Below, one piece after another: positions 20,026-54,803 of a stretch of DNA of 64,000 bases. The notes under the pieces were generated by a model that was not told the origin of the DNA, did not search any database, and saw only the letters and a program-made list of their open reading frames with translations. Every line of letters begins with the position of its first letter. The stretch's first letter is position 1. The translations under genes were made by a program, and so were the position numbers. The stretch covers positions 32,001-96,000 of the IMG/VR virus record IMGVR_UViG_3300045996_000592. One strand, written 5' to 3'. This DNA comes from a virus.

Positions 20026-21176
20026 GCGCAGGTGTTATTTAAAGGGTTATTAGTAGTAAATGTGAAGGTTGGTGAATCTTCTGACTGATAGTAAAGAGTA
20101 CCCGGACGAGCTTCATCAGGTGTGGTCGTACCTTCTTCTGTTAGTGTCTTGATCCTATCAATGACCCTTGCAGCTAACCTATCCGGTTTACTCTTAAAGA
20201 CATCAACCAGAAACTTCATGAGCTTTCCCAGGAACGTCCGGGAAGAAGTAGGTTTCCTGTCTTTAGTGCCGGCGCGTAACTCGTTCTCGGTGAACGTCCC
20301 GAATATGTCCTGCTGGATCATCATTCGGATATACTCATCCACTATAGTCTCAGGGTTGTCGTTATGACTTCTGTAAATACTTTTGATATAACGGATCTCA
20401 TCACGGCTGAGTTCTTTATAGATCTGGTCCATCTCCTCACTGGTAACAAGAGATAAAGCAGCCAGGTGGATAAGCTCTTCACTCAGTATGATCTCAACCC
20501 CCTTGATAAAATCTTCAGCAGACTCAAACCGGTACAAGGACGGCATAAAAATCTGATGGATATTAATAAAGAGGTTCCTCTCGGTTACGTAAACACCCGG
20601 TTTATTATGAGCATTCTCTATTCTAATATAGTTCCTACCAACCATCCCTCTCTGTTCGAGAGCTGCTGCCAGTCTTCCCACGAAGTTATCCCCCTGCTCT
20701 GTAAGCCGGGAAGCAATAAAACATCCGATAGCGAACCGAGACTCAAACTGGTCACGGTCAGGGGAGTTGTAAAGTTCCTCAAGTGTTCTTCCCAGAACTT
20801 CTTCGAGACGGGAACTATCCGGTGAACCGCTAAATCGTTCAGTAATAGCCTGGTTCCTCTCCCGCTCGTCTTCGGGGAGGGCAATTCGTGTATTACCAGA
20901 AGTTCCGGAAAGGAGTAGAAACTTAGAATCTTTTGATAGTTCCGAGAGCACTCCTCCTGCTGTTCTGTTATAAGTTTGTCGAGTTCGTTCATCTACTTCG
21001 AAGTTAATGTTTTTAATCTTACCTGAGTCAGAGAAGTCTGAGGCCAATTTACCTTGGCGATAACGAGAAGGATCAGGTATATCCCCCTTTATCAGGAACT
21101 CCCGGTACGCCTCAGTGAGGCCAATCTTATTTACTAACTCAGACCACCACGGGTTTGACACGTTAGGACACTTCAT
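20022..21176 (-). CDS. virion cargo protein with a degenerate zincin-like motif
   Basis: 384 aa; MKCPN...W.ELV..IG N-terminus; EELIH plus a downstream DEY. Confidence 0.65.
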   Translation of the reverse strand: MKCPNVSNPWWSELVNKIGLTEAYREFLIKGDIPDPSRYRQGKLASDFSDSGKIKNINFEVDERTRQTYNRTAGGVLSELSKDSKFLLLSGTSGNTRIALPEDERERNQAITERFSGSPDSSRLEEVLGRTLEELYNSPDRDQFESRFAIGCFIASRLTEQGDNFVGRLAAALEQRGMVGRNYIRIENAHNKPGVYVTERNLFINIHQIFMPSLYRFESAEDFIKGVEIILSEELIHLAALSLVTSEEMDQIYKELSRDEIRYIKSIYRSHNDNPETIVDEYIRMMIQQDIFGTFTENELRAGTKDRKPTSSRTFLGKLMKFLVDVFKSKPDRLAARVIDRIKTLTEEGTTTPDEARPGTLYYQSEDSPTFTFTTNNPLNNTCA

Positions 21177-39440: not shown

Positions 39441-40709
39441 TTATAATTCTTCAATAGTATATCCGAGGGCGCGGAGACGTTTTATCTCATCTGGTGTGGC
39501 CTCAAACTCTCCGCCGAGTTCGTATTTTCGGGAGCCATCCGGGTTATACAGTTTATTACTCACCTCCTCATCACTCGCCCACATAGGTATGTTCTGACTG
39601 TTACTGTACCATCCTTTCTGTTGTATAGGAGGTAGTGCAGGAACAGGTACAGGAGACATCTGTTGTGGGGTGATAGTAGGTTGAGTTCCTATAGGTAGTT
39701 TTTGTAAGGGTTGACCTACTATTACTTTTTGTTTAGGTTGTAAACTTGGAGTAATATACCCAGCCCCTACCTTTTTAGCAGCCTCTACATACTTTTCTAA
39801 GTTTTCTTTTGTTGCTGGTAACATACCTATAGTATACGCAGAAAGACTATCCTGATAAGCCCTATATCTTGGGTCATTAGGAGAGTCTACATAGATAGGT
39901 TGTTTGGTCTTACCCCCTCCCTTGAACATACCACCCATCTCCCCGTAAAACCCGGGAGTCATCTGGTCAGGGCGGAACGCACCTAACGCAGTACCCGTAG
40001 GAACGTAATCTCCTTTAGCGCCGGGAGCATTAACTCGGGCGAAGGCGTTATCACTCATCCCGGCCTCACGTTGTGCGCCTTCATTATAACGCTGCTGTCT
40101 CATTGAGTTGAACATGTTACCCGTAGCTACTGCTGCAGCCCACATATTACCATTACCGTGAGTCCACGGGTTCCACCCCTTCTGAGGCTTACTCTGCTGG
40201 GTTTGTGGTTGTGCGTTATAGTCCTGATGCTCATTAGGATCATTGAATCCTGATGCATCCTGCATCTGGCCTTCTTCCCCTGGCTTAGAGGCGTATTCAG
40301 AAGATAGCGGCTGGCTCATCTCCCCCGGATTCTGCTGACGATACTCACTATACTTTTCAGTACGCTCCTGTGCGTTAGGGTCTGGGTTTGGTTGGCTCTG
40401 TGGAAGGGCAGGAGCTGGCTGTTCGTTAGCGAACGCACCCTGCCCCCACGGATTTACACCACCACCTTCATACTTAGGATAACCCCCGTACTTCATATAC
40501 TGCTGGAAGTTCATGTTAGAGGTGGCCGGGTTGTAGTTATTGAGGTCTACCTCACAACCGTAGTTGCCACCCATAGCGTAGTTCTTAGGGTTACGGATCT
40601 GCTTCAGATCGTTAAGGATCATGGCGGCGTAATCCGGTACCACTCCTTCGTGGGCAAAAAACCCGCCGGACTGGGGACCGTAGGTAGAACCTTTTTTCTT
40701 TTTGGTCAT
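39441..40709 (-). CDS. low-complexity virion cargo protein with repeated xxxGG motifs
   Basis: Likely ATG at 40709 (frame open to 40769); Q/P/G-rich; YAMGG, MKYGG, YEGGG, FKGGG, YELGG. Confidence 0.7.
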   Translation of the reverse strand: MTKKKKGSTYGPQSGGFFAHEGVVPDYAAMILNDLKQIRNPKNYAMGGNYGCEVDLNNYNPATSNMNFQQYMKYGGYPKYEGGGVNPWGQGAFANEQPAPALPQSQPNPDPNAQERTEKYSEYRQQNPGEMSQPLSSEYASKPGEEGQMQDASGFNDPNEHQDYNAQPQTQQSKPQKGWNPWTHGNGNMWAAAVATGNMFNSMRQQRYNEGAQREAGMSDNAFARVNAPGAKGDYVPTGTALGAFRPDQMTPGFYGEMGGMFKGGGKTKQPIYVDSPNDPRYRAYQDSLSAYTIGMLPATKENLEKYVEAAKKVGAGYITPSLQPKQKVIVGQPLQKLPIGTQPTITPQQMSPVPVPALPPIQQKGWYSNSQNIPMWASDEEVSNKLYNPDGSRKYELGGEFEATPDEIKRLRALGYTIEEL

Positions 40710-40711
40710 GT

Positions 40712-40990
40712 CTATATTAGTTTGTCCTCCTGTTTGATAACCCTCTGTTCCATTTGTACCAACTCCCAAACCTCACAGAGCTCTATGATATCGAACTCGA
40801 AGGAGTCCTCACCGTACTTATTCCAGGCGTGCTGGAGATGAGTATTTTCATGATAATTATATTTTAGAGTCTTCCTGTGGTTCCCCCAACGGGCTTTGAA
40901 GTTATTAGTATAACCAATATATCTTTTACCGTCAACCTTATTAGTAATACAGTATATACCGGACAACTTCCAGATTTCTCTTTCAGTCAT
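40712..40990 (-). pseudogene. truncated GIY-YIG endonuclease (catalytic-domain fragment)
   Basis: GIYCI...RYIG, R and E present, but the ORF ends before the conserved Asn and has no DNA-binding tail; 92 aa. Confidence 0.7.
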
Positions 40991-41002: not shown

Positions 41003-41128
41003 AGAACCTAACCCACGGAGAGCTACCCGTTATCATCCAGAGAGAGAGGAAGAGAAAGGCTCCGCAGGTTAAGTCCTGAATATTTTTAGTAGGGTTATTA
41101 TCTTGTAGAAAGAGATAACGTAGTAGCT
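41003..41128 (-). ncRNA. structured 5' leader of the GIY-YIG gene (18-bp stem plus 5'-to-loop pairing)
   Basis: Arms 41060-41077 and 41003-41020 pair fully on the minus strand with 4 G.U pairs; 41114-41128 is complementary to loop segment 41021-41034. Confidence 0.55.
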
Positions 41129-41132
41129 ACTA

Positions 41133-41163
41133 ATAATATACTGAAAATACCTGGGATGTCAAA
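41133..41163 (-). promoter_or_regulatory. putative promoter
   Basis: TTTG(ACA)-N19-TATATTAT immediately after the muzzle gene stop. Confidence 0.6.
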
Positions 41164-52297: not shown

Positions 52298-53557
52298 TTA
52301 TTCGTAGTACCGGAACTCACCGGTAGATCCTTTGGTTTCAGAATGCAGCTCGATGATCCCTCCGCGGTTGTTACCAGTCCACTTGTTTGAGTAGTGGTAG
52401 TAGTCTAAGGTGGTCAGACTAGGTAAAATTCTCGAGGTAAACCCGTTAATCTCATTCTCAGTGATGTACGCGATCTGCTTCTTCTTATGGTAGTGGCCGG
52501 TATAGAGAGTACGATACTTGGTGTTCCCCCAGTCTTTGGCCCACTCAGTGGCAAACGTCAAAGGAGACTTCTGCACATCGAAATCACCGTGTTCAAAGGA
52601 TAGGAAACTGTTACCATAGACCACCACCTTCCTCTCCGCGTACTCTATGTCCCAGATGATGTTTTTGGACTGGATACACTTCGATAACGAATAGGCTATA
52701 TGCGCCTCAGTCAGGCGGCTATGGTTCCCCGGAATATAAACCACCTGTAGGGTATTACAGAACTGTTTACAGTAGTTCACAACCCAGAACATCAGGTCAA
52801 ACGCCAGTTTATATGCGTCATACGCTGACATCGAGTTGTCTACTAAAGTTTTCTGTGACGTAGTGTACCCGAGAAAGGTATCCATGTTCACGAGATCTCC
52901 ACCGAGTACCAGAATTATCTTATCCAGTTTGGCTGAGTGGTAGGCGCGACCTACGAGGTTCTGTACGCAGTTCTTCACTGAGGTCTCGATATCGTGGGGA
53001 ACCATTGTGGACTTCCCGACGTGCACATCCTGTAAACTAAGTATGGCGCATGTTTTATCAGAGAAGTTCTTGTTGATAGTGGGTATGGGGGCTGGCTTAT
53101 AACTAAACTTATATTTACTGAGGACGTCGTCTATGGCGGTAACCGGGTCAGATTTCTTCCTACCGACGTTACCGGAAATACACCAGTACCGATCTCCCTG
53201 GCGCGTCTGTTTTTCCTTGTTCCAGTAACTAACCAGTTTCCAGTTAGTTCCGGTCAGTTTTAACCTTTTTTCAATCTCTTCCGGGCTGAGGGGCTCTGAC
53301 GTAAGGTGTGCGGTGAAAGCACCTGTTCCCTTCTCAATATTCTCTGAGAACTCCACTATCTTATCCTCCAGGGCTGAGATATACTCAGTGGTCTCAAGAT
53401 TACCGGATATACCCCCGGTCCCGTAACCCGATAACTCAGTCCGGATAGACCTGAACTCTTCGGGGCTTACCCCGGATTTCTTAGCCAACCGGGTAGAGTT
53501 CAGCTTCTTATTTTTCGGGTCAGATAAGATCTCCCGTACTCTGTCTTTAGTAGTCAT
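52298..53557 (-). CDS. calcineurin-like metallophosphoesterase
   Basis: DVH, GGDLVN, PGNH, EHGD and GHYH motifs; possible N-terminal HTH. Confidence 0.88.
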   Translation of the reverse strand: MTTKDRVREILSDPKNKKLNSTRLAKKSGVSPEEFRSIRTELSGYGTGGISGNLETTEYISALEDKIVEFSENIEKGTGAFTAHLTSEPLSPEEIEKRLKLTGTNWKLVSYWNKEKQTRQGDRYWCISGNVGRKKSDPVTAIDDVLSKYKFSYKPAPIPTINKNFSDKTCAILSLQDVHVGKSTMVPHDIETSVKNCVQNLVGRAYHSAKLDKIILVLGGDLVNMDTFLGYTTSQKTLVDNSMSAYDAYKLAFDLMFWVVNYCKQFCNTLQVVYIPGNHSRLTEAHIAYSLSKCIQSKNIIWDIEYAERKVVVYGNSFLSFEHGDFDVQKSPLTFATEWAKDWGNTKYRTLYTGHYHKKKQIAYITENEINGFTSRILPSLTTLDYYHYSNKWTGNNRGGIIELHSETKGSTGEFRYYE

Positions 53558-53585
53558 GAAGTAGTCAGTGTTTGATTACGGATTA

Positions 53586-53655
53586 GGAAGTTATAGATTA
53601 ATAACTGGATAACCAAAATTATTTTTGGGTATCTAAAAAATAGTTACTAATTTAG
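53586..53655. promoter_or_regulatory. back-to-back divergent promoters
   Basis: Minus: TTTG (53617-53614)-N20-TAACTTCC; plus: TTTG (53624-53627)-N20-TAATTTAG (53648-53655). Confidence 0.6.
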
Positions 53656-53659
53656 TAGT

Positions 53660-54052
53660 ACCTTACTACTCCGGGAAGTTTAGTAACTAGTGTGACCTGA
53701 AGATATTTTTATACGTTAAATCCGTAACCCGGTCTGCCTGCACACTGATTACTACTTCTTCCCGGAATAGTACAGGTCAAGACCGGGTTTTTTATGTCCC
53801 GGCGGCCCGACCAACAAATTTGCCCTAAGAAGTCGGTATTCAGGCACGCAGCAGACCATCCCCGTAAGGACGGCGCCAGGGTACACTTCTTTTAAATGGG
53901 GAGTAAGGTCTTCTAAAGACTTGTTTCCTGCTTCCCAGCCCACTCATCAGAACTAACCGGTAAGGAGAAAATACGAGTCTATCTCTCTAAGGGGGTAGGG
54001 GGATAGACTTGTTTATTCTTACCTTCATCAGGAGTGATGGTTGGTGAGGAAG
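53660..54052 (+). ncRNA. candidate structured non-coding RNA or regulatory/origin region
   Basis: About 400 nt without a credible ORF; 31-nt 5' segment complementary to a hairpin loop; terminator-like stem 53726-53793; second long hairpin at about 53959-54023. Confidence 0.55.
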
Positions 54053-54053
54053 T

Positions 54054-54085
54054 TTTGGTTATCCAGAATATATTAGTTATCTTAG
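54054..54085 (+). promoter_or_regulatory. putative promoter
   Basis: TTTG-N20-TATCTTAG; shares TTTTGGTTATCCAG with the minus-strand promoter near 53610. Confidence 0.6.
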
Positions 54086-54108
54086 ATAACCTCAAAAACA
54101 GTAACATC

Positions 54109-54507
54109 ATGTTCGACGAAAAGTGGTTAAAAGAACTCATAACCCTTGTAAAGACAACCGACGTATCCGGTCTGTCAGAAGGAGAGATAAAGTGTTTATC
54201 CCCGGAGCTCAGTCACGGCAGTTTGGGCTGGATAAGTTCAGAGGTCTTTACCGGTATAACGAGACTGGAGAGTGGTATAGCATTACACCCCCGGTACCCG
54301 GTTAAGCGGACGTGACGAGACTCGAGCCGCCTACACTTCTATTCTTCCCGGGTCGATGAGATAGGACTGAGTATGATTAAGATTATGACTAAAGAGGACC
54401 CGCTTGTTATGGGGTCTTATAAAGGTTATGATGAAGTGATGTACTACGGAAAATGCCCCTCTATTAACGAGTTAAGAATTATTATGAGACTACTTCATAT
54501 ACAATAA
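54109..54507 (+). pseudogene. ORF interrupted by an in-frame TGA (54313-54315), or a read-through gene
   Basis: MFDEKW...VKRT*RDSSRL...YYGKCPSINELRIIMRLLHIQ*; one frame throughout, ending 4 nt before the next ATG. Confidence 0.5.
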
Positions 54508-54511
54508 CCAT

Positions 54512-54778
54512 ATGAACCATATAGAAGGAATACACGCAGATGACCTCAAACCGGAATCAGTCATCCTCAAACGCACCGTCTACGAAGAGATGATTAATCG
54601 TATCAACCTGCTAACAGACGCACTAAAGAAAGTAACAGAGGACGGTACTCACGCTTTCGTAAGACTGGAGTTTTTCGATAGACCACCGTGCGGACCATTT
54701 GGTAAGATCCGATACCAACTCCTCAGTAAAGAGGACCTAGTAAAGCTCTGTAGGAAGGAAGCTTTCCCCTTAAAGTAA
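54512..54778 (+). CDS. hypothetical protein
   Basis: 88 aa. Confidence 0.6.
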   Translation: MNHIEGIHADDLKPESVILKRTVYEEMINRINLLTDALKKVTEDGTHAFVRLEFFDRPPCGPFGKIRYQLLSKEDLVKLCRKEAFPLK

Positions 54779-54803
54779 AAACCCCGGTAGAGAACTACCA
54801 GGG
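54777..54803 (-). terminator. terminator-like hairpin between convergent genes
   Basis: CCCcGGTAG-agaa-CTACCaGGG preceded by an A-tract (U-tract on the minus strand). Confidence 0.55.

Follow-up and report, generated by a model that had tools for sequence, protein, structure and literature searches.

Genomic setting of the locus

The 64,000-nt stretch of DNA analysed here, referred to as the window, comprises bases 32001-96000 of a virus record of 134,155 bp that is rated 100% complete. The phage carries a 4300-aa ORF and has PHROG matches to virion proteins, features that would be consistent with a crAss-like phage. Its sequence is present in two soil DNA runs and in no listed RNA run, and the contigs of both are identical to the window; this identity between the two soil samples is uninformative. 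The putative RNA unit that is the subject of this analysis sits in a 476-nt gap between an exonuclease-like gene on the minus strand and small ORFs on the plus strand (Table 1). This gap is the largest non-coding one, and it adjoins the nuclease gene. Together with the ORFs that follow it, the unit makes up a 1.2-kb plus-strand cassette in which P2, the RNA, T1, T2, P3, and the ORFs succeed one another, oriented opposite to its surroundings and bounded at its right edge by the terminator of the upstream minus-strand operon.

Table 1. Coordinates (window numbering) of the features at the locus and of the leader used for comparison
Feature	Position	Strand	Description
Exonuclease-like gene	52298-53557	-	metallophosphoesterase-type "DNA repair exonuclease", 419 aa; phrog_704, E 1e-41
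P1, candidate promoter of the exonuclease-like gene	53585-53616	-	TTTG 53616-53613, 20-nt spacer, weak -7 box TAACTTCC 53592-53585
P2, promoter	53624-53655	+	-33 TTTG (53624-53627), 20-nt spacer, -7 TAATTTAG (53648-53655)
Outer 10-bp repeat	53641-53650 and 53680-53689		TAGTTACTAA / TTAGTAACTA; around the short repeat; 10 nt, 100%
Short inverted repeat	53654-53670		AGTAGT-N5-ACTACT; across the inferred start; by eye
Long imperfect hairpin	53660-53777	+	31 bp; antiterminator state; minimum-energy fold
T1, terminator	53726-53793	+	10+5 bp stem (one G.U), 32-nt loop, tail TTTTTTAT
33-codon ORF, doubtful gene	53794-53895	+	begins with the transcript's first AUG, immediately past the U-run
T2, hairpin/terminator	53959-54023	+	17-bp G.U-rich inner stem 53973-54012, 8-bp outer stem, U-rich tail
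P3, promoter for the cassette ORFs	54054-54085	+	same type as P2; ATG 23 nt downstream
Cassette ORFs without assigned function	54109-54778	+	54109-54507 (one in-frame TGA) and 54512-54778 (88 aa)
Canonical terminator	54777-54803	-	9-bp stem, 4-nt loop, T5; ends the upstream minus-strand operon
41-kb comparison leader	41003-41163	-	18-bp hairpin, 39-nt loop complementary to the 5' segment of the leader; 12 nt before ATG 40990

In terms of synteny, the upstream gene lies on the same strand as the exonuclease gene in 77 of 80 IMG/VR relatives, with gaps of 96-185 nt (one of the 80 loci, L048, has no usable gap). An N-terminal homologue of the 312-aa gene is found just upstream of the exonuclease gene in four of five relatives, and the 88-aa ORF is absent in all five relatives checked. 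These observations together indicate that the cassette is a lineage-specific insertion at an operon boundary, so that there is no orthologous locus with which it can be compared. The minus-strand terminator at the right edge follows directly after the 312-aa gene and overlaps the region in which the convergent 88-aa ORF has its stop codon.

In a search of 5.8 billion protein clusters, the exonuclease has its nearest relative in P0002, at 61% identity, and a further relative, P0004, stands at 60%. For the cassette proteins, no match to a Pfam or PHROG family was obtained. The same 5.8 billion clusters contain no match to the 88-aa ORF other than itself, an Atlas search gave no lead, and its AlphaFold2 model has a pLDDT of 54. 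The other cassette ORF has a frame of 132 codons that is interrupted by a single in-frame TGA (54313-54315). When this ORF is read through the TGA, its C-terminal part is 66% identical to a 163-aa relative (P0124), and the alignment begins six codons past the TGA and 14 residues upstream of an internal ATG, so the stretch after the stop looks coding. The TGA could reflect read-through, recoding, a broken gene, or a sequencing error; no suppressor is found among the four tRNAs of the phage (Cys, Trp, Asp, and Phe). The two IMG/VR loci found via P0124 are distant, tightly packed operons with no upstream RNA.

Promoter and probable start of the RNA

The promoter of the form TTTG-N20-TAATTTAG that had been proposed in the first-pass annotation is present as P2. 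It fits the Bacteroidota sigma-ABfr consensus of TTTG near -33 and TAnnTTTG at -7 (PMC7366714). The pattern TTTG-N19/20-TAnnTTWG occurs three times in the window, compared with 0.54 expected, a count reached in none of 100 shuffles. With a looser spacer of N17-23, 12 sites are found in the genome, and the spacer is 19-20 nt long in 10 of them. An ATG lies within 30 nt at seven of the 11 sites other than P2, and the motif sites thus behave as real promoters. The -7 box reads TAnnTTAG at nine of the 12 genome sites, as against TAnnTTTG in the Bacteroides consensus, a difference that could reflect a preference of either the host or the phage.

Near-identical copies of the -33 half of P2 lie at genome positions 31582 and 120026. 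The decamer TTTGGKTATC is found exactly three times in the window, each time in the gap: in P2, in P3 (at 54054), and on the minus strand at 53608-53617, where TTTGGTTATC is an exact match. We take the minus-strand copy to be the -33 element of the putative exonuclease promoter P1, so that P1 and P2 would stand back to back. The -7 box of P1 was read by eye, and the ATG of the exonuclease-like gene lies 27 nt past it, as at other promoters. The -33 elements of P1 and P2 (53605-53633) form a near-palindrome, GATAACCAAAA-TTAT-TTTTGGGTATC, and P3 (54053-54066) carries the same 14-mer inverted, 434 nt away. Similarity to related phages is limited to short matches to the -33 motif, which may be a shared regulator site in addition to its promoter role.

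The usual distance between a -7 box and the start of transcription would place the start of this RNA near 53660. P2 ends 5 nt before the long hairpin, and the predicted start coincides with the first paired base of that hairpin. A short inverted repeat over the likely start had been pointed out earlier, and both of its halves, AGTAGT (53654-53659) and ACTACT (53665-53670), are found there. The 10-mer of the outer repeat that surrounds it is not enriched in the window (eight matches, compared with 7.3 expected).

Among the 12 promoter sites, P2 is the only one for which the next 140 nt are strongly folded (z = -5.1, compared with -1.1 to +2.1 at the others). No ATG occurs after its -7 box until +138, directly past the U-run, and there is no leader peptide, as the sole GUG codons (53690 and 53692) meet UGA at once or after one codon. 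The 33-codon ORF that begins past the U-run has no Pfam match and no comparative support. The structured 140 nt, the lack of an early ATG and of a leader peptide, and the unsupported ORF argue for a non-coding transcription unit, to which prediction assigns the attributes of a small RNA: a promoter of its own, an intrinsic terminator, and no coding capacity.

Two mutually exclusive folds

The long hairpin consists of a 5' arm (53660-53694), a 46-nt A/U-rich top (53695-53740), and a 3' arm (53741-53777). It had been noted that 53664-53694 is nearly the reverse complement of the 32-nt loop 53741-53772 of a terminator-like hairpin; this pairing holds and is extended by four more pairs outside it. 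The resulting fold of 31 pairs contains two C.A mismatches, one U.G wobble, and one 2x3 internal loop. The duplex between the 5' segment and the loop has a predicted energy of -33.4 kcal/mol, compared with -11.3 ± 2.8 kcal/mol for shuffled loops, and is reached by none of 2000 shuffles, a count that overstates the significance because this locus and the 41-kb locus described below were both picked by eye. The 141-nt fold has an energy of -44.7 kcal/mol, compared with -29.6 ± 3.7 kcal/mol (z = -4.0), and none of 200 dinucleotide shuffles is as good. The further pairing of TGACCTG with CAGGTCA that the first-pass annotation had listed is exact, 53693-53699 being the complement of 53773-53779.

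The terminator-like hairpin itself, designated T1, is also as claimed. Its perfect 10-bp stem is formed by AACCCGGTCT (53726-53735) and AGACCGGGTT (53780-53789), is continued by five more pairs between GCCTG (53736-53740) and CAGGT (53773-53777), and runs into T6 (53788-53793); taken alone, it has an energy of -27.1 kcal/mol (z = -4.3). In a survey of the terminators of this genome, 13 of 37 candidates combine stems of 8-12 bp with loops of 3-7 nt, and five of the 37, T1 among them, end in TTTTTTAT. The standard terminators have a G+C-rich stem of 8-13 bp and a tail of the form TTTTT(T)AT, to which the stem and tail of T1 conform, whereas its loop of 32 nt (44 nt if the 10-bp stem alone is counted) lies outside the standard range of 3-7 nt. 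The abnormal part of T1 is thus the loop alone, which is exactly the piece complementary to the 5' arm. Elsewhere in the window, a terminator-like hairpin on the plus strand at 39685-39740, with a 15-bp stem and a 26-nt loop followed by TTTTTGTT, is antisense to the minus-strand gene 39441-40769.

Both folds draw on 53741-53777, and only one of them can exist at a time: with the stem closed, the 32-nt loop is unable to extend into a 31-bp helix, and the hairpin also takes up 53774-53777 of that stem. A terminator and an exclusive alternative helix are therefore contained in one leader. When the alternative states are folded, the hairpin has an energy of -44.2 kcal/mol, compared with -31.7 kcal/mol when the terminator stem is enforced, a gap of 12.5 kcal/mol, and the ensemble pair probabilities are 0.99-1.0 for the hairpin and 0.0 for the terminator. 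In predicted folds of the growing chain, the hairpin zips between 53748 and 53778, before the 3' half of the terminator exists. The dominance of the hairpin in both energy and chain growth implies that T1 should be masked by default; indeed, with a gap of this size and the same outcome in the growing chain, T1 may never be used. A CCGGG/CCCGG core is common to all four pairing segments (at 53671, 53728, 53761, and 53783), which permits the transient 1:2 and 3:4 pairings that are typical of attenuators.

Strand assignment and the probable downstream terminator

The hairpin folds better on the minus strand (-50.1 kcal/mol, compared with -44.7 kcal/mol on the plus strand), because its two C.A mismatches become G.U pairs there and its one U.G becomes A.C. 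As the hairpin carries no plus-strand signature, the assignment of the unit to the plus strand is drawn from the promoter, the U-runs, the G.U pair of T1, and the strand bias of T2. The G.U pair of T1 (53736-53777) would be A.C on the minus strand, and the U-run follows the T1 stem on the plus strand only. The region of T2 (53955-54030) has an energy of -34.0 kcal/mol (z = -5.1) on the plus strand, compared with -18.8 kcal/mol (z = -2.6) on the minus strand, where T2 is weaker because several of its pairs are G.U. This bias is the clearest sign of selection at the level of a plus-strand RNA. In a GC-corrected scan of 4468 segments of 140 nt covering the whole genome, in which no plus-strand segment is in register with the hairpin, 53921-54060 on the plus strand ranks first and 53656-53795 on the minus strand ranks fourth; the gap region supplies two of the four most structured 140-nt segments of the genome.

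Downstream of T1 lie 240 nt of non-coding sequence, then T2, and then the ORFs with their own promoter P3. The stretch 53810-53955 is no more structured than expected by chance (z = -0.3). No other plus-strand promoter motif is present in 53660-54050, so the transcript that bears T2 should come from P2 and pass through T1, which fits a masked T1. T2 is probably the 3' end of this read-through RNA.

Searches for homologues

A search of the whole window against Rfam 15 returned no match. With E values of up to 10 admitted, the region 53500-54150 gave three Rfam matches of 13.8-17 bits, compared with cut-offs of 37-110 bits, and none of them falls on 53624-53793; the unit is therefore not identical with a known Rfam motif. 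As regards a riboswitch, there is no match to an Rfam aptamer, and the sole unpaired part of the RNA is the 46-nt A/U-rich top.

Comparison of 53560-54040 with 50,697 phage records by blastn gave no match, and exact 21-mer, exact 20-mer, and gapped stem patterns gave none in IMG/VR. The gapped pattern has one match in JGI metagenomes, which proved unrelated on alignment, and six in GTDB genomes, the best of which has an E value of 0.44 under covariance model R1. A search with nhmmer of the 80 loci around exonuclease homologues found nothing. Among 33 related phage records, the best match of R1 has an E value of 2.3, and BLAST of 53558-54108 yields matches of 14-31 nt with E values of at least 0.0155, the best of which lies in the promoter -33 motif. 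At 29% GC, another related record (G002) is so A/T-rich that the promoter pattern is not informative in it.

Comparison with the leader at 41 kb

The first-pass annotation had ascribed the same architecture to a leader at 41 kb. A promoter-like sequence precedes the hairpin of that leader on the minus strand, and the inverted repeat reported at 41121-41132 (TAGTAGCTACTA) is a perfect palindrome. The duplex between its 5' segment and its loop has a predicted energy of -20.2 kcal/mol, compared with -7.6 ± 2.4 kcal/mol, and is reached by none of 2000 shuffles, a count to be discounted for selection by eye as above. The connectivity is thus common to the two loci, each of which stands apart from all 2000 of its shuffles, whereas the scale and the likely consequence differ. 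The 41-kb hairpin is not a terminator and is not followed by a U-run, and its loop pairing of 13-16 bp could form alongside the stem, as a pseudoknot, whereas the folds at 53.6 kb exclude each other.

In the phage genome, model R1 finds only 53660-53795, which indicates that the two loci are not homologous. What survives of the proposal of an undescribed family is therefore the shared connectivity of a 5' segment with a loop; the two members are not homologous by R1, and the searches described above found no homologue. It appears rather unlikely that the unit is the extreme member of an undescribed but widespread class of phage riboregulators whose 5' ends engage the loop of the terminator or gate hairpin in the same transcript, a principle that this phage would use twice (at 53.6 kb and at 41 kb); the change between short and long RNA would then be timed during infection by a phage or host factor capturing the 5' arm.

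Proposed mechanism and alternative explanations

We tentatively regard the unit as a non-coding RNA gene that stands alone, has its own promoter, and contains a conditional internal terminator, a reading that has a real though limited chance of being correct. A host-type RNA polymerase would start near 53660 from P2. On leaving the polymerase, 53741-53772 would zip onto the 5' arm (53664-53694), and the 31-bp hairpin so formed would stretch the T1 loop into a rod and take CAGG (53774-53777) from the T1 stem. With T1 blocked, transcription would by default proceed to T2 (about 54012-54023) and produce an RNA of about 360 nt. Were the 5' arm occupied by an RNA-binding protein or a complementary RNA, or removed by cleavage, the 15-bp terminator would form, and an RNA of ~130 nt ending at the U-run (53788-53793) would result. 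As the folds are strongly one-sided, this model requires a factor acting in trans for the unit to be a switch at all. The pairing on which it builds is real and well beyond chance, and its interpretation as an RNA switch is plausible.

No trigger is visible in the form of a leader peptide, an antisense promoter, or a convincing complementary site in the phage. The minus strand of 53660-54050 contains in silico no TTTG/TAnnTTWG motif, strict or relaxed. Because the cassette ORFs have P3 as their own promoter, nothing obvious would be under the control of the unit. Pairing of the 5' arm with the start region of the exonuclease gene was rejected as a candidate interaction: its energy of -11.7 kcal/mol is matched by 1193 of 3000 shuffles and ranks 155th of 265. 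An exact 15-mer complement between 53752-53766 and 20237-20251, in the coding region of a 384-aa gene, has an E value of 0.014 and no extension and is treated as a chance match. A duplex scan for targets with the whole RNA was uninformative. A retron, a DGR, a type I toxin, and a TnpB-type RNA were dropped from consideration, as no gene for a reverse transcriptase, nuclease, or hydrophobic peptide of the respective kind lies nearby.

The full dominance of the hairpin in the ensemble and in chain growth and the lack of a trigger would also be accounted for by a constitutive structured small RNA that does not switch but ends at T2, with the 120-nt hairpin as its functional body or as a 5' stabiliser. 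RNase III requires a substrate of a certain length, and the nearly continuous 31-bp duplex is long enough; the hairpin might serve as a substrate of RNase III or as a decoy made of double-stranded RNA, with T1 vestigial or irrelevant. It is T1, however, that makes such an RNA somewhat unlikely, as one would expect a terminator that is not in use to decay, whereas T1 is intact and canonical, retains a perfect 10-bp stem and the usual tail of the genome, and lies exactly where the hairpin can mask it. A functionless by-product, namely a recent inverted duplication in a recently acquired junk cassette that merely has a promoter and a terminator as neighbours, is distinctly unlikely. The cassette and its 88-aa ORF are without relatives among 5.8 billion protein clusters, one cassette ORF contains an in-frame TGA, and nothing is conserved anywhere that was searched; a cassette without relatives could indeed be recent, unselected DNA. 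A by-product would nevertheless have had to place the duplicated segment exactly in the loop of a terminator and its copy exactly at the inferred transcript start. It also sits poorly with the CCGGG/CCCGG core in all four pairing segments and with arms that have diverged by indels while retaining their pairing.

We also considered a role at the level of DNA, in which the inverted repeat with its A/T-rich centre (53700-53722) would be an origin of replication or a site of protein binding or recombination near replication and repair genes. In favour of this, the repeat is at least as good on the minus strand as on the plus strand. Its position in the largest non-coding gap, beside a nuclease gene, would suit such a role. 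The arms, however, carry bulges and mismatches, the locus has no iterons, the cumulative GC skew has no extremum there, and the absence of the whole cassette in relatives would be odd for an origin. A matching promoter 5 nt before the hairpin, a U-run on the plus strand only, and the strong plus-strand specificity of T2 likewise point to an RNA, and a DNA element is very unlikely.

Comparison with known systems

The conditional-terminator reading can be set beside several known systems. The first-pass annotation had likened the locus to P4 CI, P1 C4, and plasmid replicons, and this likeness extends to the pairing logic but not to a countertranscript, for which no promoter was found. P4 CI and P1/P7 c4 are short phage RNAs from a promoter-proximal leader in which pairing within the same transcript decides termination; they are released by processing, and their targets are separate sites upstream of the genes under immunity control. 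Here, in contrast, the segments that pair with each other form a single hairpin as its two arms, and the unit has no match in Rfam. In the Bacillus subtilis trp leader, which is controlled by TRAP, the antiterminator forms first, and the factor on its 5' strand frees the terminator. The phage RNA resembles this leader in that the antiterminator is the default state, but it has no repeated triplet array and no known binding protein, and the cassette proteins match no family.

In the countertranscript-driven attenuators of the plasmids pT181, pIP501, and pAMbeta1, an upstream antiterminator blocks an intrinsic terminator by default, and sequestration of the antiterminator allows the terminator to form (PMC4878617). 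The phage unit shares with them the 5' leader, the two exclusive folds, and the antiterminator as default. It differs from the pT181 type in that its antiterminator engages the loop (53741-53772) together with 4 nt from the 3' half of the terminator rather than the 5' half of the stem, and in that it has neither an antisense promoter nor a downstream replication gene; the host phylum is also different. The Bacteroides RNA GibS is a non-coding intergenic RNA of about 130-145 nt with a sigma-ABfr-type promoter and an intrinsic terminator (PMC7366714). The phage unit is similar to GibS in having its own promoter and a terminator, in size, and in being non-coding, whereas GibS has a long single-stranded 5' seed and the 5' end of the phage RNA is buried in a 31-bp helix, and the two show no sequence similarity.

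Literature searches returned no paper on non-coding RNAs or attenuators in Bacteroidota phages or crAss-like phages, and RNA-level control in these phages is almost unexplored. The unit described here is a well-formed single example without relatives, whose putative function is that of the model given above. In kind, it would belong with the terminator/antiterminator leaders or with the small RNAs, and its new element would be the pairing of the antiterminator with the loop. If real, an antiterminator that invades the loop of a terminator rather than its stem would constitute a new design of transcription switch.
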